Shown: piece by piece, positions 10,863 to 29,189 of the stretch
Numbering within the stretch: the stretch's first letter is position 1
Layout of the letters: every line of letters begins with the position of its first letter
From: an uncultured Gammaproteobacteria bacterium
Lineage (GTDB): Bacteria; Patescibacteriota; Patescibacteriia; UBA9934
Assembly: GCA_964582615.1 (NCBI GenBank)
Contig: CAZORP010000004.1
Location: 1,900-65,899, forward strand
Direction of reading: 5' to 3'
Length of the DNA stretch: 64,000 nt
Translations under genes and position numbers: made by a program
The notes under the pieces: model-generated
The model's input: the letters and a program-made list of their open reading frames with translations, nothing else
Told to the model about the DNA's origin: nothing
Databases searched by the model: none

Positions 10863-10865
10863 CAT

Positions 10866-11276
10866 ATGCAACAAGATACAAAAATCGCTCTTGGATTTTG
10901 TGGAATATTTCTTGTGCTTATCATGATTTCGGTATACAGAGCCGCTCCAAAAAGTGATGTTTATTTTGCGAATAGCGAAGTTGTCTCTTGGAGGGAGGGT
11001 GTTCAGGTGATTACCATTTCAGCAAAGGGCGGGTACACTCCTTCAAAAGTTACCGCAAGAAGCGGGGTGCCAACGGAGCTTCATGTGGTGACCGATGCAA
11101 CGTATGATTGTTCTTCGGCGTTTGTTATTCCGAAGCTTGGTGTTGATACGTTGCTTCCTCCCTCGGGAACAACGGTTTTCTCCTTTTCAAAAGATCAAGC
11201 CGAGGGAGTGGTATCTGCACAGTGCGCCATGGGCATGTATCGGATGACGATAGATTTTCAGGATGCTGAAATGTAA
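10866..11276 (+). CDS. membrane-anchored cupredoxin-like protein (putative)
   Basis: N-terminal TM anchor, beta-rich; C-terminal CAMGMYRM resembles a type-1 copper-site C..GM motif; sits in the copper cluster. Confidence 0.35.
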   Translation: MQQDTKIALGFCGIFLVLIMISVYRAAPKSDVYFANSEVVSWREGVQVITISAKGGYTPSKVTARSGVPTELHVVTDATYDCSSAFVIPKLGVDTLLPPSGTTVFSFSKDQAEGVVSAQCAMGMYRMTIDFQDAEM

Positions 11277-11282
11277 ACATGG

Positions 11283-11759
11283 ATGATATTTTGTATGATA
11301 AAAGCTGTCGTTGCGTTGGTGTGTAATGATAAAAAAGAGCTTGCTTTGCAGCTGCGTTCTGCAAAGGATGATGCATATCCGCTACATTGGGATTTTTCTG
11401 CGGGCGGGGGAGTGCATGATGGAGAATTAGAGAAGGATGCTGTTTTGCGCGAAGTGCATGAAGAGCTTGGGGTTGTGCTTGAACTGAAGAAATTTGATGA
11501 ATTTTGTTATAAAGATGTTCAGTTAATGGTTCCGACATATACCTATAATCACGCAAACGCTGACGATCAGACGGGAGTTTTTTATGCTCAGTATCGCGGT
11601 GATTTCTCACCCTCGCAAAAGGAGGTTGAGAGTGTTCGGTTTGTTGATCGAGAAACGCTAAGAGACATGATTATGCGTGGTGAAAAATTTCATCCCGAAC
11701 TTTTCTTTTATGCGGAAAAGAGACTTTTGAAAAATCCGGTGATGTTGGATTTGTTGTAA
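11283..11759 (+). CDS. NUDIX hydrolase
   Basis: Nudix box GGGVHDGELEKDAVLREVHEELGV. Confidence 0.7.
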   Translation: MIFCMIKAVVALVCNDKKELALQLRSAKDDAYPLHWDFSAGGGVHDGELEKDAVLREVHEELGVVLELKKFDEFCYKDVQLMVPTYTYNHANADDQTGVFYAQYRGDFSPSQKEVESVRFVDRETLRDMIMRGEKFHPELFFYAEKRLLKNPVMLDLL

Positions 11760-11868
11760 AAGAATGTTTTGATAAGTAAAAAACCACCCGACTGTCAAAG
11801 TCTCGTGTCGTATTGAGTATTAGAGGCTCCTATTGTTGAAGATATTTTCCCGCTACGGTGATATAGGG

Positions 11869-12084
11869 TTATGGCTGTAATATCTTTAAAATCTCTTCGT
11901 TTTCACGATCAAACCCGCCCGTTCTTGTAACGTAAGGAAGATGATACTTTTCGCACTCTTCCCGAATCCACGCTCCGTATGCAACAAAAAAGGCTGTAAC
12001 GGATTTGTAGGTTGCATCTGAAGCTCCATGTAGCCAGTCGAAGTGACTTGAATTTTTACGCGGCTTACCGTTGAAGGTTTTCAT
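11869..12084 (-). CDS. small hypothetical protein (71 aa)
   Basis: ORF only. Confidence 0.25.
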   Translation of the reverse strand: MKTFNGKPRKNSSHFDWLHGASDATYKSVTAFFVAYGAWIREECEKYHLPYVTRTGGFDRENEEILKILQP

Positions 12085-12161
12085 TCTTGGTAATAATCAC
12101 ACTGTACGAACCCCCCACGTGTGGAGCGCCACCAATGAGGTAGAACATAGGCTAGATGTAG

Positions 12162-12533
12162 TTATTCGCCAAATGTCACCACTTCGATATTGTTTCCATC
12201 CGGATCACGTACAAAGGCCGCGTAGTAGTTCTCGCCATACTCTAAGCGAACTCCAGGCTTCCCGTTGTCCGTTCCTCCGGTCGTGAGCGCCAATGCATGA
12301 AATGTATTCACGGCGATACGGCTAGACGCTGAAAATGCGATGTGAACACCATGACAGGCGGGATTTTCATTATCGCCTTGTGAAATCCAAAAGTGGGCGC
12401 GTTCAATACCAAATCCGCAGTAAATACCATCCTCACTGGCGACGACTTTGTAACCCAGAGGCGCCAAGGCTTGTTCGTAAAAAGTTTTACTACGAGAAAA
12501 ATTGCTTACATTGAGAGTGATGTGATCAAACAT
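12162..12533 (-). CDS. VOC-family (glyoxalase / bleomycin-resistance fold) protein
   Basis: MFDHITLNVSNF...H.AF...DPDGN..E pattern; 123 aa. Confidence 0.7.
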   Translation of the reverse strand: MFDHITLNVSNFSRSKTFYEQALAPLGYKVVASEDGIYCGFGIERAHFWISQGDNENPACHGVHIAFSASSRIAVNTFHALALTTGGTDNGKPGVRLEYGENYYAAFVRDPDGNNIEVVTFGE

Positions 12534-12617
12534 AGGTGGCTAGTTTATTTTTAGTAAGTGCGTAAAGCAACTTTTTTATCTTGTAATACGCGTAATTTTT
12601 TAAAGAAAGATTGTCAC

Positions 12618-13421
12618 TTATTCTAAACGTTCAAAGAGTGCGTGTATGAGCTCGGGAATCTCTTGTTCGAATGGATTTGGATGTCGTTCGAGTGCGCGAA
12701 GTAGAACATATCGATCAAACGTTTCTCGATCACTCAGTATGTCTTTACCATACCCCTCCATGAGCGCGTTCATAAGTTCGACGTCTTTATGTAATCGGGT
12801 GCCAATTCCGTAAAGTCCTGGAAGGGTAATTCCGAACAAGCTCAAATCGTACATCGAATCTCCAGAAAAAATATGATCTGCCTTATCGAAGAGATGTATG
12901 CGATCATCTTGAATGAGGACGTTGTTTGCATGGAGATCGCCGTGAATCGGAACGTTTCTTTGAGCTGGGGGAATTTTTCTAAGTATCTCAACGGCGCGTT
13001 GAACGGTATCTTTGGATATTCCTTTTCGTTCTTGTTGCCGAGCTCGACCGTATTCGATTTGTTTTCTCATGAAGTCTGCCCACCCAATGACTCGTTTTTC
13101 TCCTTGAGCATCGATCCAAAATGGGGATTGATATTCTTGTGTATGGAGTGTTTTTAAAGCTCTTCCGAGTTGAATATATTGTTCCGGCGTTTCAGTATCG
13201 GCAAGAGTTTCTGCATTCTCAAGAAATGTGATAATGAGATCCGTTTGTTCTTCGTGTATTTCCATGTACGGCATTCCAAGCTGGTGCAACAACTCATGAA
13301 AAGCAATTTCATTTTTACGTTCTTGCGTATCGATGGATTTAACAATGACGGTTTTTCCGTCACGTTGTTCGGTTCGCAATTTTGATGAATAAGCCTTTTC
13401 AATCGCCTTGGCAGAATCCAT
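12618..13421 (-). CDS. APH / choline-kinase family phosphotransferase
   Basis: Brenner motif HGDLHANNVL and D.....GDSMYDL. Confidence 0.65.
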   Translation of the reverse strand: MDSAKAIEKAYSSKLRTEQRDGKTVIVKSIDTQERKNEIAFHELLHQLGMPYMEIHEEQTDLIITFLENAETLADTETPEQYIQLGRALKTLHTQEYQSPFWIDAQGEKRVIGWADFMRKQIEYGRARQQERKGISKDTVQRAVEILRKIPPAQRNVPIHGDLHANNVLIQDDRIHLFDKADHIFSGDSMYDLSLFGITLPGLYGIGTRLHKDVELMNALMEGYGKDILSDRETFDRYVLLRALERHPNPFEQEIPELIHALFERLE

Positions 13422-13434
13422 ATTGCTTCAAATT

Positions 13435-14187
13435 TTAGCAGGATAAAGAGCTCTTGCGAAGAATGGCGATGAGATGAGGTTTTGCAAACCGACCAAAGAG
13501 ATGCACGGAAAGTTTCGATGCGAGATATGTGAGGTGATTGAACGAGGTGTATGAAGGATCTTCATTGAGCATGACGAATTCGGAAGAAAAACCAGCTTTA
13601 CCAGCCAAGCTGATGATGTCTTTTTCTGTATTAGCTCGATAATATACGCTAAAAGCATCCTCCTCTTCTCGACCATAAAAAAATTTTAACAATCGTCGAG
13701 CGATGCTGTTGGGGGTTAGTTGTCGAAGCTTGATGAGAAAACTCTCTTTATTCGGTGTCACAAATGCTAAAAAGCCACCGGGTTTAAGAACGCGGTATAG
13801 TTCCCTAAGGGATTCCTCGGGTTTTTCAAGGTGTTCAAATACCCACAAGGAAACGATGATATCCATACTTGCATCAGGGAGGGGGAGTCTCGATGTGTTG
13901 CTAGTGATAATACGGTCGCAAGTTATGTTACCTGTTACCGATTCTTGCGAAACGTCAAAGCCAATTTTTTCAGACCAAGAACCGTGTAATTCATCGATAA
14001 TAAAATTTCCTCGTCCGCAACCAAAGTCCAAAACAATGGACTTGCTGGTGATTCGTTCGCGAACGATGGTTGTCAACTTTACCATTGAGTCGTCCCATGC
14101 GGGATGTTCTTTTTTGTATTGACGTTTATATTTGAGTTGCCGCAATTCTTGAGATGTCAACTCTGAGTATTGTTGGATGTATGGCAT
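13435..14187 (-). CDS. class I SAM-dependent methyltransferase
   Basis: VLDFGCGRGNF motif I; LKPGGFLAFVTP. Confidence 0.7.
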   Translation of the reverse strand: MPYIQQYSELTSQELRQLKYKRQYKKEHPAWDDSMVKLTTIVRERITSKSIVLDFGCGRGNFIIDELHGSWSEKIGFDVSQESVTGNITCDRIITSNTSRLPLPDASMDIIVSLWVFEHLEKPEESLRELYRVLKPGGFLAFVTPNKESFLIKLRQLTPNSIARRLLKFFYGREEEDAFSVYYRANTEKDIISLAGKAGFSSEFVMLNEDPSYTSFNHLTYLASKLSVHLFGRFAKPHLIAILRKSSLSC

Positions 14188-14222
14188 GTGGGCAGTTTAC
14201 CTTCTTGTGAGGATGGGGGAGA

Positions 14223-14594
14223 TTATGACTCTTGTTTGGAATCGTCATACTCCATGAGATAGTGAGTGTCGGTTTCTTCGATTTCTCTAAAACCCATTTT
14301 TCGGTAAAGCTTCACCGCATTATTCTCCTTCAAGACCTGCAAGCGAGCTGGTCTATGTGTCTCTTTTGCTTTTACCAACACCTCTGCAAGCATGCTACTG
14401 CCAATGCCTTTGCCTTGAAAATTTGGCAGGAGAACAAGTTCGTGCAATGTAATTACATCGGGGGTTTCCTCCACTGAAGCATAGCCACACAGCTCTCCAT
14501 TAATGGAGAGAATTTGGTAACGAGAACTGTTCCAAGATTTTGCAAAAAAATCATCTTGAAGCCGCTCATCCCAAGAACCGAATTGTCGCACCAC
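14223..14594 (-). CDS. GNAT-family N-acetyltransferase
   Basis: NFQGKGIGSSMLAEVL acetyl-CoA-binding motif. Confidence 0.7.
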   Translation of the reverse strand: MVRQFGSWDERLQDDFFAKSWNSSRYQILSINGELCGYASVEETPDVITLHELVLLPNFQGKGIGSSMLAEVLVKAKETHRPARLQVLKENNAVKLYRKMGFREIEETDTHYLMEYDDSKQES

Positions 14595-14878
14595 GACATC
14601 GCGATATGCCTGATGGTGAGTTTTGCGAGCGAATTCGAAATCATCCTCTCCTGCCGGTCTTCGTTCAATAACGTTTTTTTCTACAGATCTGTATCGAACT
14701 CATGAGGGGTTTTCATAGTGAAGAAAGTGTATCCAAAATTCTGCATAAGTTCTATCGTTTTTCGCGAAGCACGGTTATTCTCAGCTGTAATGCCGGTTGA
14801 TTGTGTCGCTCTTGCTGACGACGATAGCAGTCGCGAATCTTCACGTTCGATGTATATCGAGCAGTGAGGTGGTAATTA

Positions 14879-15823
14879 TCATACCGACTGTGACTGTAGC
14901 AATTTCAGAATCTGTTTCCTCTGATGAATTGGCACCCGAATCCATACCGAGGTGGATTCAGCGACATTCGAAAAGAGCGGTTCAAGTACGCCATGTAACC
15001 ACTCTGAATCATCTGAGTAAAGCAAAGATGACTTCGATGTGATATCGGGAATATTCACCAGGCATCGCTTGTTCCCAAATTCAGACCAGTAGGCGTCGAT
15101 GGCTTCTTTGTAGTGACCTAGAAACGCAACTGGATCTTCGCTAATTTCAAGTTGCGAAAACACGAAGGTCTTATCATTGAAATAATTCTCCATGATCTTC
15201 GTGTCATTTCGGAGCGTCTCATCAAAGTGCTCGCGCATGCCAGCTGCACATTCTTCGAAATAGCGTCGCTCCCAGCCGCCCGACATCGTGACGTGCGGTG
15301 CTAATTCCTTAAATGCCGAAAGATCACGATCGTTCGTCTCTGACGACGTAAAGTTCAAAGTGTTCTGAAGAATTGCCAATGCAAGAACATTGGCACTCGT
15401 CGACGAAATTTTCTCATCGAAACCCCGCTTCTTGAACTCTTCCCAAATCAAGGTACCAGCGGCACCGACGCGTTCAATATGTGAGTGATCGCCGAGCCGT
15501 TCCTTCCAATACTCTTCGTAACCGTAGTGATGATCGTAAATCTCACAGATCTTTGATTCGTCCTCATTGGGAAAAGCAAAATGCTCTGGACCCGAAAGAT
15601 CGACGTAGACAAAACGATCTTCTGTAGTCGGCACATATTCCGTGAGGTAATCGCCTCCCTGTTCAAGAGCTAGTTTTGTAACAGAATGATTAAGCGGACC
15701 AATAAAAACAGCCACCGCATCCTTTCCTTCTTTCTGAAGGAGCTCGGCGTAGGCGATAGCACAACCAAAGGCGTCGATGTCATTAAAAGCCTTTCCGGCG
15801 GATACAATGTACATACTAGCCAC
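14879..15823 (-). CDS. ppaC: DHH-family manganese-dependent inorganic pyrophosphatase (family II PPase)
   Basis: NDIDAFGCAIAYAEL, DHHYGY, GAAGTLI and LALAILQNTLNFTS...AFKELA segments are collinear with family II PPase motifs; 314 aa. Confidence 0.65.
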   Translation of the reverse strand: MASMYIVSAGKAFNDIDAFGCAIAYAELLQKEGKDAVAVFIGPLNHSVTKLALEQGGDYLTEYVPTTEDRFVYVDLSGPEHFAFPNEDESKICEIYDHHYGYEEYWKERLGDHSHIERVGAAGTLIWEEFKKRGFDEKISSTSANVLALAILQNTLNFTSSETNDRDLSAFKELAPHVTMSGGWERRYFEECAAGMREHFDETLRNDTKIMENYFNDKTFVFSQLEISEDPVAFLGHYKEAIDAYWSEFGNKRCLVNIPDITSKSSLLYSDDSEWLHGVLEPLFSNVAESTSVWIRVPIHQRKQILKLLQSQSV

Positions 15824-15863
15824 AGATTACCGCACATTTCCTGAACCGCAAAACTCTCAGTTA

Positions 15864-15953
15864 TTGAAAAACCACCACTAAATGGTGACGGGTTTTCAGC
15901 AGTCGCTTTGGCTAGGAATCCTATAATAGTACCAAAGCGGCTCTTGGCGGGGC
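15864..15953. repeat. intergenic repeat element R1: palindromic terminator hairpin plus tRNA-Trp 3'-end-like fragment
   Basis: ttgaaaaacc-caccactaaatggtg-gggttttca hairpin, then a 28-nt block gggttttcagcagtcgctttggctagga and a 24-nt block accaaagcggctcttggc(g)gggc, both shared with R3 next to tRNA-Trp. Confidence 0.6.
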
Positions 15954-15981
15954 TTAGTAAGCGAGGTTGGAACCTTGATGA

Positions 15982-16431
15982 TCAGCGAGTGATGTATCGA
16001 AGGATGCTGAATTTCGAAGTGGCGGTGTATACAGCCCCATTGTATAAAGCTTCGCCGTCGTTAAGCGTAAGTGTCTCGCGATAGCTATCGCCCTTCTCTC
16101 CAGCCTCCGCGTATTTGAGTGTCAAAATTTCTTGATCGCTATCAGCTTGTCGAGACTCAATCTCCATGATTGAGTAAGAACGTTTTTCGCAATATTTATA
16201 GGCGCTACCGAAACCGGGTGAAGGTTCTGCTTCGGTAACTTCACGACGACATCCTGGGTCTATAGTGACTTTTGTAACAGATTGCGGATAGACGTGGACG
16301 TACGTGATTGCACTCGAAGCATCCTGGGTATGAACATACGAAGCTCGAGGCATCAACAGCCACACGAACACAATGAGTCCGGCGAGCGGCAGTACTCCTA
16401 TTACTGTCAATATTTGCAAGTGATGTTTCAT
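15982..16431 (-). CDS. small membrane-anchored hypothetical protein
   Basis: Internal Met MKHHLQILTVIGVLPLAGLIVFVWLL is followed by a TM helix; the upstream extension of the ORF runs into repeat R4 and is probably not coding. Confidence 0.35.
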   Translation of the reverse strand: MKHHLQILTVIGVLPLAGLIVFVWLLMPRASYVHTQDASSAITYVHVYPQSVTKVTIDPGCRREVTEAEPSPGFGSAYKYCEKRSYSIMEIESRQADSDQEILTLKYAEAGEKGDSYRETLTLNDGEALYNGAVYTATSKFSILRYITR

Positions 16432-16439
16432 ACCGGATG

Positions 16440-16640
16440 AAGCATAGCGGATTTTATCTCTTGCCACAATGCGGATTCGACTCAAAAGGCACCTCACACG
16501 CATGGGTTCGATCCTCTGATGGCATAAACAAAAATCCCCGCTGAAATTAGCGGAGACTTTTGTGGCAGGGCACATGACTACTGAACTCAATTTTCAGAGG
16601 CTTTCAAAGGGTTTCAGGAACTAGATACTGGGACGCAGGT
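16440..16640. repeat. intergenic repeat element R4 with tRNA-like fragments and a terminator
   Basis: tggcagggcac..ctgaactc..ttcag block shared with R2; gggttcgatcc T-loop-like fragment; ccccgctgaaattagcgg hairpin with a T-run on the minus strand. Confidence 0.5.
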
Positions 16641-16682
16641 ACAATTAAATGGATAACTGTATATCGTATGTATTTTAAAAGC

Positions 16683-17525
16683 TCACTCATCTTGAATTAA
16701 ATGGTTGGAAAGATCCATGCTCCCCAATTTTTGGAGCATTGTTTGAAAATCTGTTACTGGATAGAGGAGGCTTATAAATGAAGAAGGAATTGCGGCGTTG
16801 TTGACGGCTGCTCGATCATCAAACCCACCCATAAAATGCAGAAATGCTTGTGTATCTTGTGCTTGAGGAGGAAGATCTTGCATTCTTAAGAGTAAAATTT
16901 TATTAGCGATAGGATTTATATCTGGTGCTGCTAAAATAAATCCCCATTGTGGCGGATTCGTGTTATATTTGAAAATTGATATGAATTGTTCTCCTGATGG
17001 CAGTTCTATTTCTTTCTGCAAGCTCTCTAAAGACTGCCAAGTTGCTATTAGTTTTATACCTTCCCGTTTATTTTCTCCAAGGTTAAAATTTACGACCGAA
17101 CGTTTATTTGTAGTTTTATGATAATCTTCTGCACATTTGACTTCTTCAAATTCGCAAACGCCTTTAATTGATATAGTAAAGAAATGGCCGTTAAGTCTTG
17201 GTAGTGGAACGGATTGTTTTTTGATCGTTGTGATTATTTGACCATCCATTGAAAGATGAGCCTCGCCAAAATAATGATGAGCGAATTTAATTCTACGCCT
17301 TGTAACTTTTGCGAAATCTTTTGTAAGACTTAAGTCAAATTTTTGCGGCATATGGGGAGGCATAATTACGAGGCTCCCCAGCCCTTCAGATTTTTTATAG
17401 TAGGGAAATGTTACATAAACACTACCATCTGAAGAATACAAAATATCAAAAATTTTAAAACACTTTCCTGATTGTGTAACTGTGATTACGTGTCTTTTTG
17501 ATCTTATGGGTGCGAGTATTGCCAT
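16683..17525 (-). CDS. AT-rich orphan hypothetical protein (280 aa)
   Basis: Long ORF with markedly lower GC than the flanking genes (about 22-40% in sampled 60-nt stretches); flanked by R4 and R2. Confidence 0.45.
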   Translation of the reverse strand: MAILAPIRSKRHVITVTQSGKCFKIFDILYSSDGSVYVTFPYYKKSEGLGSLVIMPPHMPQKFDLSLTKDFAKVTRRRIKFAHHYFGEAHLSMDGQIITTIKKQSVPLPRLNGHFFTISIKGVCEFEEVKCAEDYHKTTNKRSVVNFNLGENKREGIKLIATWQSLESLQKEIELPSGEQFISIFKYNTNPPQWGFILAAPDINPIANKILLLRMQDLPPQAQDTQAFLHFMGGFDDRAAVNNAAIPSSFISLLYPVTDFQTMLQKLGSMDLSNHLIQDE

Positions 17526-17528
17526 ACA

Positions 17529-17760
17529 GTTGAAAAACCACCAGACATTGCTGGTGGGTTTTCAACTGCGGTCATAATGCACTTAACTGCCTTTGAGAGA
17601 CGCAGGTATCCGTGAGGATAATTAGCGTTGCCCTAGGTATTCAGGTATTTCGCACCATGACAGCGCTTGGCAGGGCACTCCGCTCCTGAACTCGTTTATT
17701 CAGGGGGTTTCGGAGGATTCTGACGGTATCAAGCGAGGGACTCCGGTCACGTAAACTGTT
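17529..17760. repeat. intergenic repeat element R2
   Basis: ttgaaaaaccaccag-acattg-ctggtgggttttcaa palindromic hairpin; gcgcttggcagggcac and ggactccggtcac blocks shared with R3 and R4. Confidence 0.55.
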
Positions 17761-17790
17761 ACAAAATGTTACATGTGACGGGTATGTTCA

Positions 17791-18177
17791 CTATTCGGTA
17801 CCTTCATCAATATCTTCGATATCTTGGGCTCTTTCGAGAGCTTCCACATCAACTTCGGAACTTAGGTCTTTTAGCTCACTGGATCTATCATCGTCCTGGG
17901 TACCTGTCGGCGAAACTGGCCGGCTGTACTCATCTAATGCATCAAATACAAATGGGAGATGTTCGTCGTAACTTACTTTATAGTTACGCGCATCTACAGT
18001 CTTTTTAATGTCCTTAGTTGCGGCAATTACTTTTTCACGATTTTTAATCCAGTAATCCTTCAACTCGTTTTCCCCTAAAATTTCAGCGATATACTTCGGA
18101 TCAAATTCATATCTCGTCGCCTCAAGCGCCCTGTGATCCTGGAAATGAATGAGTAAGAAATCGGCAAAAAACTCCAC
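17791..18177 (-). CDS. small acidic hypothetical protein (128 aa)
   Basis: ORF immediately downstream of the KAP NTPase gene; D/E-rich C-terminus. Confidence 0.4.
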   Translation of the reverse strand: MEFFADFLLIHFQDHRALEATRYEFDPKYIAEILGENELKDYWIKNREKVIAATKDIKKTVDARNYKVSYDEHLPFVFDALDEYSRPVSPTGTQDDDRSSELKDLSSEVDVEALERAQDIEDIDEGTE

Positions 18178-18204
18178 TGCCCGTTCGTTGCCCTGAGGAT
18201 TGAA

Positions 18205-20904
18205 TCAGACGTCAAAAATGTATACCTGCATCTCCTTACGGATCCCTTCGTTGTCATTGATGCCGTCAGGATCGAATAGACCACTTCCTAAGTCTGAATT
18301 AGTAATCCGATTATTTATTAACTGATAAATAATAAAACTTGCGGAGATAATTTTCTCGGTCTGAACCTCATTACTGATATCTTTCTTTTCCGAGCGGACG
18401 TAACTAAGCGAATCCCCGAATAATTCTTGGTCGCTTAATGCGTAAATATCAGAAATGAAGTTTTTATTCTGACCTACGTATCTATTCTTGAATTCTTTAT
18501 ATACCAACTGAGTAATTCGTCTCACCGTATCTTTACCTTCGTGATCTGTTGTTTCACCAATTTTCTTCGCATATGCACGCAATCCGCGTTCGAGGTTATA
18601 AAAATTACCGCCTCTATATGGACTACAGTGCAAGCGTAACTTGAGACCATCGTAAAACCCAATTACTCCATTTTCTGGATCTAGAACCTTACTAACGACA
18701 CTCTTCCGCTCGCCATCCTCGAACAATGCCTCGGCAATCTGTACGACATTTGTATCATCGTTGTGGTAATAGCCGTCGCGCTGATCTTGCCAGCCTCGTT
18801 GATTCAAAAGGTAGAGTATGCGCAGAGAAATGTCGTCCCGCAAGCCCGTTCCGAGACCATCCATCTCAATCGTCGAGAAACGACGCATGCTCTCCACGAA
18901 CCAGTGGATCGTAGCCAGCGCCGTTTGCTTTGAAAATAGATCCGTATTACGAACCATGGCCTGCAGCAGCAGGCTAAAATGATATTCGGCTGGGTTGCTG
19001 ACAGAGAAAATAAACTCCTCCTCTGAGGCGAGATCGCTCATCGTCTTCTCTCCAGATCCAATCTTCCTTGCTTCATTCACATAAAACTTTTTTGCTTGAG
19101 TTTTGATTTGAGTGACACGTTCGGTCATGAGTCGCAGATAACGCTCCAAACTTCTATCAAGATGGACCGTGCCGTTCATTGCTGCAGAAAAAACACTAAA
19201 ATCATCTTCTTTGTATTTTTTCGAGAATAATTGTGCGTCAAAAAGGTTTCTTAACAAAAATCTTTCGGCATCTGTCTTTTTCAATAAGTACTCTTTGAAA
19301 AATGCTGAATTTTCATATGAACTTTTTGAGCTTTCCCATTTCCACTTAATAGAAAAGTGCTCTTTTCCGTTAATTTCGGCCGTGTAAATGTCTCGAAAAG
19401 TTTCCGAAAAATTTAGATGCAACAAAAACAGGTTGATCAAATCGTAACCCTCAAAATCAAGCTGTTCGACATCCAGATCCAACAGTCGTAATCGGATAGT
19501 ATTTACCAATCGTTTTATTTTTCGAATATCACCCAAGACATCCTTGTATCTATAAAAGATCTCGGGTTTGAATACTTCATCAATTGCTTTCTCCATTGAT
19601 TCTTTCGAAGTTGGCGTAAATGAAGAGCCCTCTTCCTCTGTCTGCTCAAATAATTTATCTATAAGATATTTTTTAAGCATTTCTGGATTAATCGTTAAAA
19701 CCTGCTTCACCGTAACTACTTTCTCGAAGTATTCCCTGATCTGAGCGGTATCGATCGATTCACGTTCAATTTTAACCAACCTAGGATCATGATCGTTATC
19801 TGGCTTTTTACCCTGAGTGGTTTTCTCCGTCTGATCTGAGCCGCCTAGAGAAACCTGAAGGTGCTCTCGCGTCTTCGTGAGATGATAAAAGCTATTAACG
19901 TTCTGCGTATCGAAACAAGTTACAAAGGAAATATATGGCAGCTTGAGACTGACACGGATTACATCGATAAAGCGCTTCACCTCATCAATGGGAAGCCTAT
20001 CAAGATCATCAATAACAATGACGAGTCGCCGCCGGGCGATTTCCAGCTGCTCTCGAATCGCCTGAACTCTATCTTCGTCAGACAGCGAATCCGGAATAAA
20101 CGACGCTAACTCTAACTTAAATAACTTCGGATAAGGCTCAATCGCCTTGGCGTACCTTGCAAAGTAATCTCCAAGTTGAGGAACGAAATTATTCTCATCT
20201 AAAAAGCCAGACAGCTGTCGTAGGAATGCCGAAAGTACATGATCTTGATCGTATCTTAATGGTTCAAATGAAAAGACTAGCGCACCAGTCTCTTCGAGAC
20301 GCTTTTTACAAAAATGAAGATACGATGACTTGCCGTAGCCCCACGGTGCATCAATTCCGAATACAAGGCTATTTGGAGACCCATTATTTTCAAGTTTATT
20401 GGCAAAATCAATCGCGTCATTCTTAACACCAAGTACGTCCGATTCTTCATCGTCAGAGAGTGGTTCATCGGATAGAAAAAATGGCTTCACTGTATTCTTA
20501 TTCTTCAAACCGAGACGCCAACCTCTCAAATGTGTAGCAGCGATTATGACAATGATTAACTTAATAACCTCAAAGAGAGCTCCATTAAACAGTGGCAAAA
20601 ATGACCACTCGGCAAAGCATGCTCTGATGACTTCATGGTATCCCGCCGCCATCCCGACACCTAGGATTACCGAGATAGCGGAATCCCACTCGGATTCTAG
20701 ATGTCTAATGATTTTAAATGCGGGAAATACGACGAGCACAAGAAAGCCAATCGCGATCAGTGGAATCGCAAATAGCGCGGCAGGCTGATACTTTTCAAAA
20801 CTTTCATAACCCAATAAAACCGCCAATGCTATGCCGATCGAGACCGTGAAGATCTGAACATTCTTCTTCACTCTAGCTGTAAGTATTGTTTTGGTTAATG
20901 ACAC
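18205..20904 (-). CDS. KAP-family P-loop NTPase with N-terminal 4-TM membrane anchor
   Basis: Walker A GIDAPWGYGKSSY; Walker B LVIVIDDLDR; 899 aa; four N-terminal hydrophobic helices. Confidence 0.7.
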   Translation of the reverse strand: MSLTKTILTARVKKNVQIFTVSIGIALAVLLGYESFEKYQPAALFAIPLIAIGFLVLVVFPAFKIIRHLESEWDSAISVILGVGMAAGYHEVIRACFAEWSFLPLFNGALFEVIKLIIVIIAATHLRGWRLGLKNKNTVKPFFLSDEPLSDDEESDVLGVKNDAIDFANKLENNGSPNSLVFGIDAPWGYGKSSYLHFCKKRLEETGALVFSFEPLRYDQDHVLSAFLRQLSGFLDENNFVPQLGDYFARYAKAIEPYPKLFKLELASFIPDSLSDEDRVQAIREQLEIARRRLVIVIDDLDRLPIDEVKRFIDVIRVSLKLPYISFVTCFDTQNVNSFYHLTKTREHLQVSLGGSDQTEKTTQGKKPDNDHDPRLVKIERESIDTAQIREYFEKVVTVKQVLTINPEMLKKYLIDKLFEQTEEEGSSFTPTSKESMEKAIDEVFKPEIFYRYKDVLGDIRKIKRLVNTIRLRLLDLDVEQLDFEGYDLINLFLLHLNFSETFRDIYTAEINGKEHFSIKWKWESSKSSYENSAFFKEYLLKKTDAERFLLRNLFDAQLFSKKYKEDDFSVFSAAMNGTVHLDRSLERYLRLMTERVTQIKTQAKKFYVNEARKIGSGEKTMSDLASEEEFIFSVSNPAEYHFSLLLQAMVRNTDLFSKQTALATIHWFVESMRRFSTIEMDGLGTGLRDDISLRILYLLNQRGWQDQRDGYYHNDDTNVVQIAEALFEDGERKSVVSKVLDPENGVIGFYDGLKLRLHCSPYRGGNFYNLERGLRAYAKKIGETTDHEGKDTVRRITQLVYKEFKNRYVGQNKNFISDIYALSDQELFGDSLSYVRSEKKDISNEVQTEKIISASFIIYQLINNRITNSDLGSGLFDPDGINDNEGIRKEMQVYIFDV

Positions 20905-21353
20905 AGTTGTATGCGGAAAACCCTATCAAAATTGCGGCCAAATGACCAGCTCAAATGTCATGCAGAAAAGTCATTCTTCTTATCGTGCACAAAAAGCACA
21001 TTCTGACTCATACTGTACTATTTTGTACCAAAATAAGGCACTTATGCACAGATTCTCTCCGGAAAATTGACGTTGATTGTACGGGCGATAAAATATCTGT
21101 TGATCGCAATCACGATTACTAACTCGTAACTCATTTTTGCCCATGCAAATGTAAAACTATTGACGCGCATGACATGTCTTCTGGCGCAATGATGCTAAGA
21201 CCATCGATGCCAAAGACAAAAAGCTATGAACATTACTGCTCCGAAGGAGGGAGCAAATCAGCAATAGCCTTTTGTTTTTGTTATCGATCTCGTTAGGAAG
21301 TCCTATCGAATCGGTAGGGCTTCTTTGCTTTTTAACAACTTAATTTCAAATGT

Positions 21354-22631
21354 ATGCCTACTCAGATACAAACCACGTATGTTCCCATAACTAATCTGAA
21401 TCCCGCGCTCTACAACCCGCGCAAATGGGACAAAGAGGCGACGAAGAAGCTCCGCGAAAGCTTGGAGCGATTCGGCTTCGTCGACCCCATCCTCGTAAAC
21501 GGCGCACCCGATCGCATGAATATTGTCATCGGTGGTCATTTCCGTCTCAAAGTTGCGAAGGATATGGGCATGACGGAAGTCCCTGTCGTCTATCTCCATA
21601 TCCCAGACATCGAGAAGGAGAAGGAACTCAACCTTCGTCTCAATCGTAATACCGGTACGTGGGATTACGACCTTCTCAAGGCATTCGATACTAACTTCCT
21701 ACAGGATGTCGGCTTTGATGCGTTGGACCTCCAGAATGTCTGGGGAGATCTTGCATCCATCGACGACCGACTCATTCTGAAGGAGGGTGAGGTTGAACCT
21801 CCAGAAAAACCAACCATTCAAGATGGCGAAATCTATAAGCTCGGAGATCATCTTTTGATGTGTGCGGATTCTACAGGCCCCGCCAATGCCGCTCGTCTCA
21901 TGAGAGAAGAAAAAGCAGACATGATCTATTGTGATCCTCCGTATAACATCAAACTAGATTACGCGAATGGCGTTTCAACGGACGGCAAATACGCTGGGCA
22001 AGTAAATGATGCGTTGCCAGACGGTGAGTACCAAGAATTCATCAAAAAATCAGTCGAGGTTGCACTATCCGTCGCGAAGCCCGACGCACACATCTTTTAC
22101 TGGTGTGACCAGAGGTATATCTGGTTGGTTCAGCGTGTATATCGGCACTGGAAGATTGAAAATCGCCGCGTGTGCTTGTGGATCAAGAACAACTTCAACA
22201 TGACTCCGCAGGTTGCCTTCAATAAGGCATACGAGCCGTGCGTCTATGGAACGATCGGAAAGCCATACCTCAATCCTGATGTCACGAATCTTCACGAGAT
22301 CGTGAACAAAGACGTGGACGCGGGTAACCGAGCAACGAGCGACATCATCGATCTTTTTGACATCTGGCTTGCGAGTCGTGATGCAGGACAGGAATACGAA
22401 CACCCGACTCAAAAACCCCTCTCACTCCACGAGAAGCCACTGAAACGCTGCACAAAGCCGGGTGACGTTATCTTGGATCTCTTTGGTGGCAGCGGATCGA
22501 CGCTTCTTGCGTGCGAGCAAATGCGTCGCAAAGCAAGGCTCATAGAAAAGAATCCTGCATTTTGTCACGTCATCATCAAAAGATTCGAGGAGATGACCGG
22601 TCTTAAGGCTGAAAAAGTAACGAGTAACTAA
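21354..22631 (+). CDS. ParB-like nuclease domain fused to a beta-class N6A/N4C DNA methyltransferase
   Basis: N-terminal ParB/Srx-like region (YNPRKW...VNGAPDRMNIVIGGHFR); MTase motif IV CDPPYN before motif I FGGSGST. Confidence 0.75.
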   Translation: MPTQIQTTYVPITNLNPALYNPRKWDKEATKKLRESLERFGFVDPILVNGAPDRMNIVIGGHFRLKVAKDMGMTEVPVVYLHIPDIEKEKELNLRLNRNTGTWDYDLLKAFDTNFLQDVGFDALDLQNVWGDLASIDDRLILKEGEVEPPEKPTIQDGEIYKLGDHLLMCADSTGPANAARLMREEKADMIYCDPPYNIKLDYANGVSTDGKYAGQVNDALPDGEYQEFIKKSVEVALSVAKPDAHIFYWCDQRYIWLVQRVYRHWKIENRRVCLWIKNNFNMTPQVAFNKAYEPCVYGTIGKPYLNPDVTNLHEIVNKDVDAGNRATSDIIDLFDIWLASRDAGQEYEHPTQKPLSLHEKPLKRCTKPGDVILDLFGGSGSTLLACEQMRRKARLIEKNPAFCHVIIKRFEEMTGLKAEKVTSN

Positions 22632-22632
22632 T

Positions 22633-23418
22633 ATGGAAATTCAAAACGGTGCATTCATTCAACTTGGAAAGCATCGGCTTCTATGCGGTGATTCAACGAA
22701 TCCTTCAGATGTCGCAATGCTTCTTGGAGATACCCGCATCGATCTCGTGCTCACAGATCCTCCTTACGGCGTCGGTTATGTGGAAAGCAAGGAAGGATTC
22801 ACGCAGGAACTCGCTAAACCGAAGGTCATCGAGAATGATCACGTACAGACCGAAGAAGAGTATTTGGAGTTCACTAAGAAATGGCTCTCACTTATTCCTC
22901 CGTACCTCACAGATAAGAACGCGATCTACATCTTCAATACCGACAAAATGCTCTTTCCATTGCGAGCGGGTATGGAGTCATGTGGCATGAAGTTTGCGCA
23001 GCTCCTCATCTGGGCTAAGACTCATGCGGTCATTGGTCGCTTGGATTATCTTCCGCAGCACGAACTTATTGCTTACGGCTGGCACGGGACGCACGCGTTC
23101 AAGAAAGCCAAGGACAAAAGCATCCTCGTGCACCCAAAACCCGCCAAGAGCAAGTATCACCCGACCATGAAGCCGATTGGTCTTCTACGACGTCTTATTC
23201 TTAATAGCTCAGATGTTGGTTCAAACGTCTTTGATCCTTTTGGTGGAAGCGGCTCAACACTCCTTGCTTGCGAGCAAACAGGGCGTGTCTGCTTCATGAT
23301 CGAGAAAGACAAAGAGTACTGCCAAACCATCGTGAGTCTCTATGAACGCATGACGGGCGACGTCGCGGTAGTAATTGAACCAGCATATGGAGGAACCGAA
23401 GCAGCAACGCCGGTATGA
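22633..23418 (+). CDS. beta-class N6A/N4C DNA methyltransferase, paralog of the upstream MTase domain
   Basis: TDPPYGVGY and FGGSGSTLLACEQ; C-terminus near-identical in pattern to the upstream gene. Confidence 0.75.
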   Translation: MEIQNGAFIQLGKHRLLCGDSTNPSDVAMLLGDTRIDLVLTDPPYGVGYVESKEGFTQELAKPKVIENDHVQTEEEYLEFTKKWLSLIPPYLTDKNAIYIFNTDKMLFPLRAGMESCGMKFAQLLIWAKTHAVIGRLDYLPQHELIAYGWHGTHAFKKAKDKSILVHPKPAKSKYHPTMKPIGLLRRLILNSSDVGSNVFDPFGGSGSTLLACEQTGRVCFMIEKDKEYCQTIVSLYERMTGDVAVVIEPAYGGTEAATPV

Positions 23419-23926
23419 GAACGCTCAACGTCGGAAGGCTAAACAGAAACTACAAATCATCAATACGCTTCGAGAGACGGGCAATATCGAGGCCGCCTGT
23501 CGCAAAGTCGGCATCGCGCGCAATACGTATTACGTGTGGGCTAAGGATGATCACGAATTCAAGATTGAAGCCGAGAAGGCTCTTGTCATTGGCACCGAGG
23601 TAGTTTGTGACACTCTTGAAAGCAGGTTAGTCGCTCGAGCGAATTCGGGCGAGGGCTGGGCGTTGAAGTACTATCTCGGGAATAAGCATCCAGATTACAG
23701 TCCGCGAGCCAGCGCCCGCAAATATCATCGAGAGAATGAGCAGTCTGATGAATTCTCTGATGAAGATGAGCGCCACATTGAGCATGCTCTAAAAATGCTC
23801 GAGTACTTGGAGCCCTGTGAGGACCCGTCCCACCATGGCCACAAGATGCTACCTCCGCCTCCGCCGGCGGCTGTCAATGACAAAGCAGGCGACGACGACG
23901 AGGATCTTGACGGTGCATTTAGCTAA
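23387..23926 (+). CDS. HTH protein resembling terminase small-subunit / transposase-type HTH, with an acidic C-terminal tail
   Basis: GNIEAACRKVGIARNTYYVW helix-turn-helix; start could also be 23375. Confidence 0.4.
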   Translation: MEEPKQQRRYENAQRRKAKQKLQIINTLRETGNIEAACRKVGIARNTYYVWAKDDHEFKIEAEKALVIGTEVVCDTLESRLVARANSGEGWALKYYLGNKHPDYSPRASARKYHRENEQSDEFSDEDERHIEHALKMLEYLEPCEDPSHHGHKMLPPPPPAAVNDKAGDDDEDLDGAFS

Positions 23927-24529
23927 CTACTTTGTCACTTCCGTAGAAAGGAAAACCGTGGTGGTCTGCTTCGTGGCATCGTTTACCGCAACGAGTCCAT
24001 AGCCGATCGTGTCACTTGGGATTTCATAAACGATCACGCCCTTCTTTGGAATGGACGGACTGAGCGTCTGAACTTCCAAATAGTTATCGATAGATCCGAT
24101 GGTGTCATCGTAGGTCGTATAACCCCGCCCTTCGCCATCTCCGAGTCGCAAGTACTGGTTTGGCATGTAGAGAAAATCCGAGGTCGACTTCGAGGTCACT
24201 TGCAGTTCAATAATGACAAACTTCGTCCCCTCAACGGCAGCGACCGGCTTGCCGTAGCGTGAACTCATGGTTTGCGCCTCACGGACACTGAGAACCTTCA
24301 TCTCATGCGTTGCGAGGTCGATTGGATTGTTGATCTTTGCCTCGACGACTTCTTTCTCGGAATTCTTGGTGTTCGTAGTTATGGAACCGGACGGAGTTAC
24401 CGTGGTCTTTGGACGATCGCTTCCGTCATCCATGTACGGTGCGATAATGAAAATGAACAAAATGAAACCGAGGACTCCCGTGAGGATCTTATGCTGCTTG
24501 AACCAGCTCTGTTTTGGGTCATTCGACAT
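23927..24529 (-). CDS. membrane-anchored DUF4352-like protein
   Basis: N-terminal TM helix; Thr/Ser-rich linker; beta-rich domain with YLRLGDGEGRGY...VIVYEIP. Confidence 0.4.
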   Translation of the reverse strand: MSNDPKQSWFKQHKILTGVLGFILFIFIIAPYMDDGSDRPKTTVTPSGSITTNTKNSEKEVVEAKINNPIDLATHEMKVLSVREAQTMSSRYGKPVAAVEGTKFVIIELQVTSKSTSDFLYMPNQYLRLGDGEGRGYTTYDDTIGSIDNYLEVQTLSPSIPKKGVIVYEIPSDTIGYGLVAVNDATKQTTTVFLSTEVTK

Positions 24530-24879
24530 AGTAAAGCGTATGAGGAATTAATCCCGAGTATTGCTAAAACAAAAAGCGACACCCGGTGGCGCTTTACAAC
24601 CCAGCCCAAGCACGGATCGTGCAAGGTCTGTTTTAACCGGATGCCGCTCATTGCGCGCGATCCGGAAATAGCCAAATACGGCCTGCAAAGGCTGAGTTGT
24701 AAAGCACCGACATAGTAGCATAGGCACCCCCAAAGTAAAGCGATTTGCTCAGTATTTTGCCTTTCCTTATACCTTGAGGGCTTTTGAGTTACCTACAGGT
24801 CTGGGGCTAGGCACCCCGGACAGGTGTGGCATCAATGTAGCTGTCCCCTAGGGAACTAGGGCGCACAAACTACGAACAT

Positions 24880-26295
24880 ATGCCGGAACACAATCCGCTC
24901 CACAGTCCCACGCTTCTCGCGGAAAATAGAGCTAACAATATAGGTAAAGGCGATGCAAAAGTTGATCTTCGGTATTGCCTCTATGCACGCAAGTCATCCG
25001 AAGATGACGAACGTCAAGCGTTGTCCATCGATTCACAAATCAACGAAATGATGGAACTGGCGAGAAAGGAAGGAATGGACATCGTTGAGACGCGTCGAGA
25101 GAGTCATTCAGCAAAGTCATCCGGCGAGCGACCGGAATTCAATCAATTGATGATCGATATCGATAAAGGACTCTTCAATGCCATTCTCACATGGGCGCCA
25201 GATCGCTTGAGTCGTAACGCTGGAGATCTTGGGTCACTCGTTGATCTCATGGATCGTGCGAAGCTTCATGAGATCAGGACGCACTCACAGAAGTTCACGA
25301 ACTCACCGAATGAAAAGTTCCTCCTGATGATCCTCGGAAGCCAGGCAAAGCTCGAGAATGACAATCGCGGTATTAATGTAAAACGTGGCCTCAAGAACAA
25401 AGTTGAAATGGGATGGCGGCCAGGACTTCCGCCCCTTGGCTACTACAACGAGAGATCAATTAATCGCGGTCAGAATAGAATCTTCATCGATGAAGAACGT
25501 GCACCGACCATTAAAAAGCTCTTTGAACTCGTCGCGTACGAAAAGATGACTGGAAGGGCACTTTTTACCTACTTGAAAGAGATTAATTTCAAAACGCGAA
25601 CCGATAAATTCGTCAGTGTTAGTAGCGTCTACAAGATCCTCAAGAACAGATTTTATTACGGCGAGTTCGAGTTCCCGGAAGGGAGCAGCAAGATCTATAA
25701 GGGAGCACACGAACCGCTTATAACAAAAGAGTTGTTCGATCGCGTACAAAATCAGCTCACTATTCCCGACCGACCAATCCAAGGCATTAAAGAATTCTCT
25801 TTTACGAAGATGTTCAAATGCGGCGCATGCGGCTCCGGCATCACCGCAGAGGAAAAGATTAAGAAGATCAAAGGAACAGAAGAGATACGAAAATACATCT
25901 ACTATCGGTGCGGAAAATCCAACGGGCGTATCTGTGACGAGAAGCCGATGCGTGAACAAGATATCCTCAATCAGCTCCTAGAACTTATTGATTCAATCGA
26001 GATCGATAGGATTGGTGCGCAAAAACGCATCGAAGACGAGCTGAAGCGTTACGCTGCATTCTCAGAAGGGGTGCTCGGAAAGAAGATCAATAAGCCAAAA
26101 CAAAAGGAGGTCAGCATTCGAAAATATGCAAAGCATATTCTCACAAATGGAACTCGCGAGGAGAAGCGAGAAATTCTGGAGCATGTAAAACACTGTATAG
26201 TGATATTCAATAGAGCTCTAAAGCTCGAATCCCTGGCACTGCCTAATGAAGCAAGAGAAGACCCCCCACGTTTAGAGAAACGCGGGGGGTCATGA
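24880..26295 (+). CDS. large serine recombinase (integrase)
   Basis: Resolvase catalytic region YARKSSEDDERQALSIDSQ; recombinase domain; zinc-ribbon CGACGSG...YYRCG; coiled-coil C-terminus. Confidence 0.8.
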   Translation: MPEHNPLHSPTLLAENRANNIGKGDAKVDLRYCLYARKSSEDDERQALSIDSQINEMMELARKEGMDIVETRRESHSAKSSGERPEFNQLMIDIDKGLFNAILTWAPDRLSRNAGDLGSLVDLMDRAKLHEIRTHSQKFTNSPNEKFLLMILGSQAKLENDNRGINVKRGLKNKVEMGWRPGLPPLGYYNERSINRGQNRIFIDEERAPTIKKLFELVAYEKMTGRALFTYLKEINFKTRTDKFVSVSSVYKILKNRFYYGEFEFPEGSSKIYKGAHEPLITKELFDRVQNQLTIPDRPIQGIKEFSFTKMFKCGACGSGITAEEKIKKIKGTEEIRKYIYYRCGKSNGRICDEKPMREQDILNQLLELIDSIEIDRIGAQKRIEDELKRYAAFSEGVLGKKINKPKQKEVSIRKYAKHILTNGTREEKREILEHVKHCIVIFNRALKLESLALPNEAREDPPRLEKRGGS

Positions 26296-26297
26296 AG

Positions 26298-27143
26298 TCA
26301 CTCGAGGCGTCGAATCGCAGCCCGGAGGACGTCGGCTGCGAGGGTGTTGGGCTTATACCTCAGACCGAGAACGCTCCGAGGCAACTCACCGCACGTGATA
26401 CCGAGGGAATCGTAAAAGTCTGCGGTTGCACCGAGGACTCTTCTCGAAAACTCTCGTTCGACGTTCTTCGGAATCGAAGCCCACTGCGTGGGCTTCCCGA
26501 ACGGCAAGACATAGGGAGCTCCGGTATTCAGAAGGCCCATGACCGTTCTTCCGGAAAGTGGCGCACCCGGCATGAAGTCTCGTTCGCAGATCTCATCTGT
26601 GACTTCGGAGTATTCACGTACTGCCGTGACAGAGCAGTTACGTGCCCGCAGTCGCTCAATACCTTCACCGATTGCGACACCGGCGAAAACGTGGCCAACC
26701 CGAATGTTTCGCTCCAGGAAGAGATCGATGATGCGTTCCATCATCGCTCCGCTGAAAACCACGTCATCCACGAGAGCTATGTCACGCTCATGGATAGTCG
26801 CAGCTACCTCGTCCACGATGGCGGTCAAATCCGTGTAGATGCCATCTCTCGTCCCGTAACCAGCATCACGTAGACCGCCATCAACCAGTCTGGTGACGTT
26901 GATCTGCAGCGCTCTCGGTGCGTAGACTCGATCCAGGCTGACGACCGGGAACGAAGAGTTGGCGAGGATATCCGAGAGCCCATCACGCAGCTCGCTCTCG
27001 GAAATCCATTCAGTCGAGCCAACGCTAACGTGCAAGGCGCTCTTCACCTCAGCGCGAAACCCCTCCAACACCGTATCGGGAACAACAAACCCAGCCTCTC
27101 GCCACAGCGTAGCGAGATCACAGGACACAACGTACGGACGCAT
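26298..27143 (-). CDS. type I phosphoribosyltransferase-domain protein, GC-rich
   Basis: PRPP-binding motif IALVDDVVFSGAMM; GC content clearly above that of its neighbours. Confidence 0.5.
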   Translation of the reverse strand: MRPYVVSCDLATLWREAGFVVPDTVLEGFRAEVKSALHVSVGSTEWISESELRDGLSDILANSSFPVVSLDRVYAPRALQINVTRLVDGGLRDAGYGTRDGIYTDLTAIVDEVAATIHERDIALVDDVVFSGAMMERIIDLFLERNIRVGHVFAGVAIGEGIERLRARNCSVTAVREYSEVTDEICERDFMPGAPLSGRTVMGLLNTGAPYVLPFGKPTQWASIPKNVEREFSRRVLGATADFYDSLGITCGELPRSVLGLRYKPNTLAADVLRAAIRRLE

Positions 27144-27220
27144 GTCGAACTCCTTGGAACCTCCCAGCGTCTTTGCCGGGAGGGAGCGAATGCACTGCTT
27201 TCACTGCAACCGATCCCTTC

Positions 27221-27772
27221 CTACAAAGAAGGGATTTGATGCACGACACGCACCGCTTGGATGGCCATAGCGACCGCAGCTTCCGGAGTTGATGCAACTT
27301 CGATACGTACTCGTTCACGCGGGTCAATAAATGTCCCAGCGAGACGTTCACTCCAGCCGCCAGTATTCTCGATGGTAATAATCGGAATATTGGCCTGATA
27401 GGCGATAGCCATTTCCGTGAGTGTTCCGGAGCCACCGTTTAAACAAATGATTGCATCGCAAGATGATACAAGTACAAACTCTCGACCGCCGCCACGACCC
27501 ATACCTGCCGTGACAATTGCGTCAGCGTTCTTTTCAACAACACCGTCAATGTCTTTGCCGTAGGTAACCCCAACCACAAAGCCTCCCGCACGCTTTGCAC
27601 CGCGGCAGGCGGCGGATGAAAGCGAATCAAGGTCTTTCTCTGCGCCGAACAATAAAATCGCACCCGCTTTCGCAATCTCTTCACCGACGCTTTCGGCTAA
27701 CACTGCAATCTTCGTTGAGTACTGAAGATCCGAACAAGAGCCCATCACGCCAATCTGTAATTTTCGTTTCAT
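27221..27772 (-). CDS. LOG / TIGR00725-like Rossmann-fold nucleotide-binding protein
   Basis: IGVMGS start and NGGSGTLTEMA (GGxGTxxE) motif. Confidence 0.55.
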   Translation of the reverse strand: MKRKLQIGVMGSCSDLQYSTKIAVLAESVGEEIAKAGAILLFGAEKDLDSLSSAACRGAKRAGGFVVGVTYGKDIDGVVEKNADAIVTAGMGRGGGREFVLVSSCDAIICLNGGSGTLTEMAIAYQANIPIITIENTGGWSERLAGTFIDPRERVRIEVASTPEAAVAMAIQAVRVVHQIPSL

Positions 27773-27773
27773 A

Positions 27774-29180: not shown

Positions 29181-29189
29181 CCGATAGGC

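Follow-up and report, generated by a model that had tools for sequence, protein, structure and literature searches.

Single-gene proteins that combine transmembrane (TM) helices with a P-loop nucleoside triphosphatase (NTPase) domain of the KAP family protect Enterococcus from phages, as reported for EF_KAP and three metagenomic KAP proteins (PLoS Biol 2026, PMC13552941), and mutation of the Walker B motif or deletion of the C-terminal region abolishes protection by EF_KAP (PMC13552941). Other P-loop NTPases in phage defence include PifA of the F plasmid (T7 exclusion), which according to the summary in PMC13001434 lacks TM helices and makes the membrane depolarise and leak nucleotides; RdrA of the RADAR system, which forms heptameric rings (PMC9994260); and Tmn, a decameric transmembrane assembly that selectively exports Mg2+ (PMC13001434). 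Here, we describe a KAP NTPase gene at positions 17791..20904 (minus strand) of a 64,000-nucleotide stretch of the metagenomic contig CAZORP010000004.1, the whole of which is referred to as the window. The original prediction for this locus, made from the DNA letters, was a two-gene defence module consisting of an 899-residue KAP NTPase and a small acidic partner. Our analysis instead indicates that 17791..20904 is very probably one gene, encoding a membrane-anchored KAP P-loop NTPase of about 1,037 residues that is cut by a premature stop, and that it is a defence candidate carried on a phage-derived island.

One reading frame interrupted by a TGA codon

The features of the gene that are needed for the argument are the following:

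17791..20904, minus strand: one KAP NTPase gene over its whole frame of 1,037 codon positions, one of them the internal TGA; homologs of corresponding extent have 950-1,060 aa
18205..20904, minus strand: 899-aa open reading frame (ORF) from the maximal GTG start; contains the four-TM N-terminus, the KAP NTPase and the greater part of the conserved, helical C-terminal region
20530..20853, minus strand: membrane region at the N-terminus (residues 18-125), with three hydrophobic helices that are clear and a fourth that is weaker (hydropathy and the model of homolog P0002)
20323..20358, minus strand: Walker A GIDAPWGYGKSS, from the translation
19996..20022, minus strand: Walker B VIVIDDLDR, from the translation
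19894..20406, minus strand: Pfam KAP_NTPase match, residues 167-337, model positions 8-196 of 293
18205..18207, minus strand: in-frame TGA; homolog column Cys in 25/28, Ala in 2, Phe in 1; one base change from TGT or TGC
17791..18204, minus strand: cut-off C-terminal 137 codons; ~90 codons of a conserved alpha/beta subdomain, then ~45 of a non-conserved acidic tail
17791..18177, minus strand: 128-aa acidic ORF with GTG start at 18177, part of the cut-off C-terminus
17527..17568, minus strand: intrinsic-terminator-like hairpin, 18-nt arms (94% complementary), then TTTTT

The 128-residue ORF of the original prediction does exist and is acidic, with 33 of its 128 residues being Asp or Glu and an isoelectric point (pI) of 4.4, but it is not a separate gene. 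It lies in frame with the KAP ORF, and what separates the two is one TGA (18205-18207) and nine sense codons. Translated through the stop, the junction reads ...YIFDV*FNPQGNERAVEFF..., and over a longer stretch ...EMQVYIFDV*FNPQGNERAVEFFADF.... The fused query of 1,037 residues retrieved 33 relatives, mostly of 950-1,040 aa, several of which cover 91-95% of the query; the alignments are colinear across the stop, and the tail matches the last ~130 residues of these homologs. In all 28 homologs that reach the tail region, body and tail form one ORF. A scan of one genome per species yielded 27 full-length relatives, and 24 of the 26 homologous loci that were compared carry a single ORF of 920-1,057 aa, the exceptions examined being lesions or contig edges. 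No conserved neighbour accompanies the KAP gene across the 26 loci, and a local all-against-all BLASTP comparison groups the window 128-aa ORF with the KAP family itself. Because body and tail are not conserved as a pair of genes elsewhere, the outcome is the one that the original prediction had itself named as speaking against a module, and the proposed partner has to be given up.

A profile built from the tail and searched against 1.84 billion representative proteins gave 244 hits, so that about 244 cluster representatives at 50% identity carry the C-terminal subdomain, and in every long protein it is located at the extreme C-terminus. Many of the hits are short, and seven of these begin at the same Met. 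As genuine stand-alone genes, the three short hits that were inspected were rejected: the first stems from a frameshift in a C8 run that splits a KAP homolog (L070, 4700-5000), the second from an in-frame TAA replacing the Gln of an IYQL motif (L071, 3880-3910), and the third is explained by a contig edge (L072). KAP homologs are also frameshifted in two species-representative metagenome-assembled genomes (MAGs; L013 and L026). Disrupted copies are thus frequent in this family (L070, L071, L013 and L026), which could reflect decay of dispensable genes or indel errors in MAGs.

The TGA occupies the position of the Cys in a conserved motif, YLF[ND]VCFNP, which reads YIFDV*FNP in the window. Beyond it, the tail is free of further stops and frameshifts, and its conserved part of ~90 codons retains the family motifs (a conserved W, and NY..Y.E.L..VF..LD). 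Identity to the nearest homologs is 30-34% in the tail and 37-42% in the body, and all 60 columns that are invariant in our homolog alignment (A1) are kept in the window copy. The sole convincing terminator lies ~230 nt past the stop codon of the tail, and not after the TGA. The simplest reading is that the TGA is a recent nonsense mutation, in which a single base change would have turned the conserved Cys codon (TGY) into TGA, so that the product would end at residue 899 and the last 137 codons would take on the appearance of a 128-aa acidic ORF. That the mutation would be recent follows from the level of tail identity relative to the body and from the intact invariant columns. The tail is still open and recognisably homologous, and the window copy has probably been truncated recently; it is probably inactive. 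The same TGA is present in the Logan assembly of SRR16481183, where one contig is 100% identical to 15888..26987 (11.1 kb).

Across the 61 genes in the window, TAA serves as stop codon in 30, TAG in 17 and TGA in 14. A deviant genetic code with TGA as a sense codon was considered and is ruled out, because TGA is an ordinary stop that ends 14 of the 61 genes. A Shine-Dalgarno-like (SD) motif is found upstream of only 6 of the 61 long ORFs (window 1..64000), and translation initiation in the host genome appears to proceed largely without SD sequences. For this reason, a missing SD is no argument against initiation at the tail.

With these data in hand, other readings of the two ORFs can be weighed. 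A KAP NTPase with a separately encoded acidic partner would agree with there being two callable ORFs, which gene callers do call separately, and with the acidity of the smaller one. Given the shared frame with a single stop, the homology of the small ORF to the C-terminus of some 30 homologs, and the lack of a stand-alone tail gene among the three inspected examples or of any conserved neighbour, such a module is extremely improbable. In a functional split gene, translation would re-initiate at GTG 18177 (27 nt past the stop), and the tail so made would reassemble non-covalently with the 899-aa product. Several points favour this: the start codon follows closely after the stop, the tail looks like an autonomous subdomain in the P0002 model, and the low usage of SD sequences removes one objection. 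The break, however, removes the end of a helix and nine residues of the conserved region, including the FNP motif; no other genome among the 26 loci and 244 tail hits is split at the same point, and other split copies bear different, plainly accidental lesions. We therefore regard a functional split as quite improbable. It is also conceivable that the TGA is a sequencing or consensus artefact, or a minor allele, and that the gene is intact in most cells, as the source is a metagenome-assembled contig and the tail is perfectly open and conserved. The change is a substitution and not an indel, and two assemblies agree over 11.1 kb, although probably built from the same reads, which makes an artefact or minor allele very unlikely.

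If the TGA were instead decoded as selenocysteine, or read through at low efficiency, a full-length protein would result. Selenoproteins are classically recognised by a TGA where homologs have Cys, and this is the case in the window gene (Cys in 25 of 28 homologs). Located 12 nt downstream of the TGA is a hairpin (dG -8.0) with the loop GGGCAGUGGA 22 nt from the UGA, which fits loose criteria for elements resembling the bacterial selenocysteine insertion sequence (SECIS). A hairpin at least as good follows 15.7% of 300 random TGAs in the window, so that this one is no better than chance would give. Moreover, the region after the TGA folds no better than shuffled sequence (z-score 0.12) and has no match in Rfam, and the 64-kb window contains no tRNA-Sec. 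Because the column tolerates Ala and Phe, the Cys is not catalytic. TGA is otherwise an ordinary stop in this genome, and we know of no selenocysteine usage in the reduced-genome Patescibacteria, to which the host belongs. Taken together, recoding is highly improbable. If it did occur, the TGA would throttle translation and so hold a potentially toxic membrane effector at low levels in a bacterium of the candidate phyla radiation, a group from which, to our knowledge, neither recoding nor a selenoprotein has been reported before. Premature termination by a nonsense mutation is thus the reading that we use in the following.

Architecture of the KAP protein and comparison with known systems

As for its domain content, the 899-aa ORF (18205..20904) agrees with the original prediction of a KAP P-loop NTPase with Walker A GIDAPWGYGKSS and Walker B VIVIDDLDR. 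The profile searches that had been proposed as a check returned Pfam KAP_NTPase (PF07693) with E 2.4e-25 and 89.9 bits against a curated cut-off of 20, and the PADLOC model for PifA (PDLC02361) with E 1.6e-18, the latter over model positions 7-226 of 720, i.e., the NTPase core and not the full length. PF07693 is carried by all homologs found with the fused query. Walker A (GxxxxGK[ST]) and Walker B (hhhhDD) are both intact, and the homolog alignment identifies G183, G189, G191, K192, D299, D300 and D302 as invariant in the family. Residues ~530-1,000 have no family or PDB match.

The membrane region was also correctly predicted to be N-terminal and not inserted in the NTPase domain. Kyte-Doolittle analysis gives hydrophobic segments at residues 18-34, 42-62, 76-92 (weak) and 109-125, i.e., three to four segments that all precede Walker A, and the P0002 model has four helices in this region. 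Neither in the window protein nor in the full-length homologs does a hydrophobic segment follow Walker A. The protein consequently lacks the inserted TM helices of the canonical KAP arrangement. That arrangement is not universal in the family, as PifA has no TM helices, and membership at the Pfam level is unaffected. Stretches rich in Lys and Arg flank the TM domain before TM1 and after TM4, and favour an N-in/C-in topology. The loop after TM2 holds a conserved R-x-D motif in which R72 is nearly invariant and D74 invariant, a hint that the membrane domain may be more than an anchor. Three homologs (P0003, P0013 and P0025) are without the entire N-terminal membrane region and start just before the conserved F-x-SD motif, so that their Walker A lies at residues 39-56; these could be soluble forms like PifA, or their starts could be mis-called.

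The nearest full-length homolog, P0002, was modelled with AlphaFold (mean predicted local distance difference test, pLDDT, 80.3; predicted template-modelling score, pTM, 0.68). In the model, four long N-terminal helices are followed by an ATPase core, and a long stretch of helices then leads to a compact alpha/beta subdomain of helices and a small sheet at the C-terminus. This subdomain is modelled with pLDDT ~90, and its equivalent is what the stop removes in the window. In a Foldseek search of the PDB, the best matches to the P0002 model are the heptameric RdrA chains, with E 1e-5 and 900+ aligned columns at TM-scores of 0.24-0.28, followed by ORC/Cdc6, HslU and Apaf-1. A sequence search of the PDB gave no relative of the KAP protein, and matches in BFVD were confined to the ATPase core.

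The protein is most similar in layout to the EF_KAP type (PMC13552941), in that a single polypeptide combines membrane helices with a KAP NTPase and, C-terminal to it, a long region without known domain, and in both cases the gene is found near serine recombinases on mobile DNA. The likeness is one of architecture and of the KAP core, and several differences are evident. In the model of EF_KAP, one TM helix is N-terminal and a second lies within the KAP domain, whereas the window protein has four that are all N-terminal; the C-terminal region is 322 aa in EF_KAP and ~480 aa in the window family; and the recombinase used as a marker in PMC13552941 is of the small serine type, whereas the one beside the window gene is large (471 aa). 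With PifA, the window protein shares the KAP NTPase core, and PifA likewise acts at the membrane, as summarised in PMC13001434. Unlike PifA, the window protein has TM helices, and the tests made show no relation between the C-terminal regions of the two.

RdrA (PDB codes 8hr8, 8fnu and others) is the best structural match over the ATPase and helical regions, but has no membrane domain. The RADAR adenosine deaminase RdrB is absent beside the window gene, and for the 135 neighbours of the homologs it does not appear in the listed families, which are the top 25 of 100 and the top 25 of 65 with matches. In analogy to the window protein, Tmn is a membrane-anchored P-loop NTPase defence protein with a cytosolic sensor arm, and it arrests infection by ion export. 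Tmn is from another NTPase family and carries its two TM helices as an insertion in the P-loop domain, and no homology between it and the window protein was detected. QatA of QatABCD is a KAP-type NTPase as well, but PADLOC QatA hits were marginal and local (1.3e-4 and 3.2e-4). No QatB, QatC (QueC-like) or QatD is located near the window gene, and the neighbour families listed include no Qat hits; the gene is thus not part of a QatABCD system.

Phage-derived island and homologous loci

The island around the KAP gene contains the following additional features:

20905..21353, no strand: spacer between the divergent KAP and ParB-methylase genes; 449 nt, GC 39.4% vs ~46% in the window
21354..26295, no strand: phage-derived remnant beyond the spacer
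21354..22631, plus strand: ParB-methylase (ParB_N + N6_N4_Mtase)
22633..23418, plus strand: second N6/N4 methylase
23375..23926, plus strand: small-terminase-like helix-turn-helix (HTH) protein; 44-nt overlap with the second methylase
23927..24529, minus strand: DUF4352/phrog_806 protein
24880..26295, plus strand: large serine integrase, 471 aa, Recombinase and Zn-ribbon domains

The KAP gene is cargo of a ~11 kb remnant of a phage-derived integrative element. A mobile setting had been suspected from the outset, and the large serine integrase, the small terminase and the ParB-methylase bear this out, as do similar elements that carry KAP homologs. The divergent promoter region that was proposed between the KAP and ParB-methylase genes stands as far as its length, its AT-rich composition and the ParB-methylase beyond it are concerned, but its promoter character does not gain support. 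Putative, unverified sigma-70-like hexamers are present on both strands of the spacer, but the number of promoter-like hexamers over 17300..21400 is 8, compared with 9.1 expected in shuffled sequence. A hairpin with a 14-bp stem and a T-rich run lies at 21295..21325 (plus strand), ~30 nt 5' of the ParB-methylase start codon, with no upstream gene on that strand to terminate. The tandem N6/N4 methylases share a 51-nt motif that is 82% identical.

Neither a restriction endonuclease (among ORFs scanned in 14.9-27.1 kb) nor a large terminase (in the window island) was found, and megablast of 17000..24000 against phage and plasmid collections returned nothing. At the island ends, the search for att-like repeats gave only short matches of a kind that often arises by chance, and two similar terminator hairpins. 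These terminator-type hairpins, at 15864..15898 (island left end) and 17530..17564 (after the KAP gene), are 35 nt each and 80% identical (TTGAAAAACCACC...GGGTTTTCA). The Logan contig ends exactly at 15888 and 26987, with the next contig running from 26996, so that the breaks bracket the island; they may reflect population heterogeneity at the island ends. Three ORFs flank the island, at 26298..27143 (minus strand, 281 aa, GC 57%), 16683..17525 (minus strand, 280 aa, GC 36%) and 15982..16590 (minus strand, 202 aa), and they have no Pfam, PADLOC or PHROGs match and no homolog in any compared locus.

Elsewhere, the window holds housekeeping genes, including those for SecA, SecD, DnaB, MurC, GlyA and Tgt. 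The best named matches of SecA are all from Patescibacteria or Candidatus Uhrbacteria (59-77% identity), and the host chromosome is accordingly, as judged from its genes, that of an Uhrbacteria-like member of the Patescibacteria. A Bacillota host, which spore-germination-type domains had brought up, is ruled out by the SecA matches. In the SecD homolog (60862..62895, plus strand, 677 aa), residues ~170-373 match models of PrsA/SurA-type peptidyl-prolyl isomerases (PPIases), suggesting that a PPIase domain has been inserted into SecD or fused to it. An ORF of 929 aa at 35400..38189 (minus strand) has no Pfam or NCBIfam match.

The KAP family has a patchy distribution over Patescibacteria, Paenibacillus, Burkholderiaceae (Burkholderiales), Pseudomonas and Bacteroidota. 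On three contigs of Patescibacteria/Saccharibacteria (L006, L007 and L015), an intact KAP homolog has a serine integrase, a ParB-methylase and a large terminase only a few genes away, and L006 and L007 have the small terminase too. The window integrase and ParB-methylase are 52% and 43% identical, respectively, to those of L007 and L015, and gene order is rearranged among these elements.

The closest full-length homolog, P0002 (L073:3457-9382; 38% identity), is placed differently. It lies directly downstream of a gene for a 926-aa MmeI-type restriction-modification (RM) protein, and the pair, situated between RsmH and a ClpB-like gene, constitutes a two-gene defence islet. The P0002 contig is syntenic with 41-50 kb of the window (DnaB 67% and the ClpB-like protein 42% identical), and related genomes therefore hold the KAP gene at different sites. 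For the 135 neighbours of the 26 homologs, no partner family recurs among the families listed. In the same listed families, the commonest are serine recombinases (four neighbours) and methylases (two), and single cases include a type II restriction enzyme, a type III methylase, JetA, HEPN, MzaA and PDC-S56/57.

Proposed role of the intact protein

The intact protein would be composed of a four-helix N-terminal membrane domain, a cytoplasmic KAP ATPase, a conserved helical region of ~480 residues, and an alpha/beta subdomain followed by the acidic tail. We propose that it may function as a single-gene antiphage or superinfection-exclusion protein. In analogy to the systems described above, infection would be sensed by the C-terminal region, binding or hydrolysis of ATP would cause the protein to assemble into a ring like those of RdrA or ORC, and the membrane helices, now clustered, would upset the integrity of the membrane or the ion balance. 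Such a sequence of sensing, ATP-dependent oligomerisation and membrane perturbation is the most likely mode of action. The defence candidacy put forward in the original prediction is reasonable on account of the match to the PifA core, the patchy distribution of the family, the restriction and defence genes among some of the neighbours, and the published antiphage proteins of the TM+KAP type (PMC13552941).

The intact protein might instead serve the mobile element that carries it, be it in DNA entry or exit at the membrane, in element maintenance or in signalling. Linkage to integrase and terminase genes in four elements can be taken in favour of this possibility, and the KAP family is said to have been described by Aravind and colleagues in 2004 as broadly associated with mobile elements. 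However, about 22 of the 26 loci do not adjoin integrase or terminase genes, P0002 is paired with an RM gene between housekeeping genes, and the frequent disruption and patchy distribution fit dispensable defence cargo. A role in the service of the element is for these reasons unlikely.

Certain observations weigh against our interpretation of the locus as a broken defence gene. The presumed loss of function through truncation is drawn from conservation and from a different KAP protein, EF_KAP. The Logan contig is not an independent confirmation of the TGA, since it is identical over 11.1 kb, comes from one sample and probably derives from the same reads. When the flanks of L007 and L015 were scanned with PHROG, an exonuclease and a helicase came up, whereas capsid and portal genes did not, and these elements are therefore termed phage-derived and are not proven prophages. 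The neighbourhood evidence for defence is anecdotal, comprising a handful of the 26 loci; the structural likeness to RdrA is weak by TM-score despite its E value; and the C-terminal 480 residues match nothing of known function.

With respect to annotation, the supposed two-gene defence module is corrected to one interrupted gene, and the acidic protein is not worth pursuing as a partner. The family to which the gene belongs forms a coherent, uncharacterised branch of membrane-anchored KAP NTPases, of which the window holds a broken copy. An antiphage role of single-gene TM+KAP proteins was validated only in 2026 (PMC13552941), and intact members of the present branch, such as P0002 and the Paenibacillus copies, are reasonable candidates for studying how a KAP ATPase is coupled to a four-helix membrane domain. 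They would also offer a rare opportunity to study immunity genes that travel on mobile elements of candidate-phyla-radiation bacteria.

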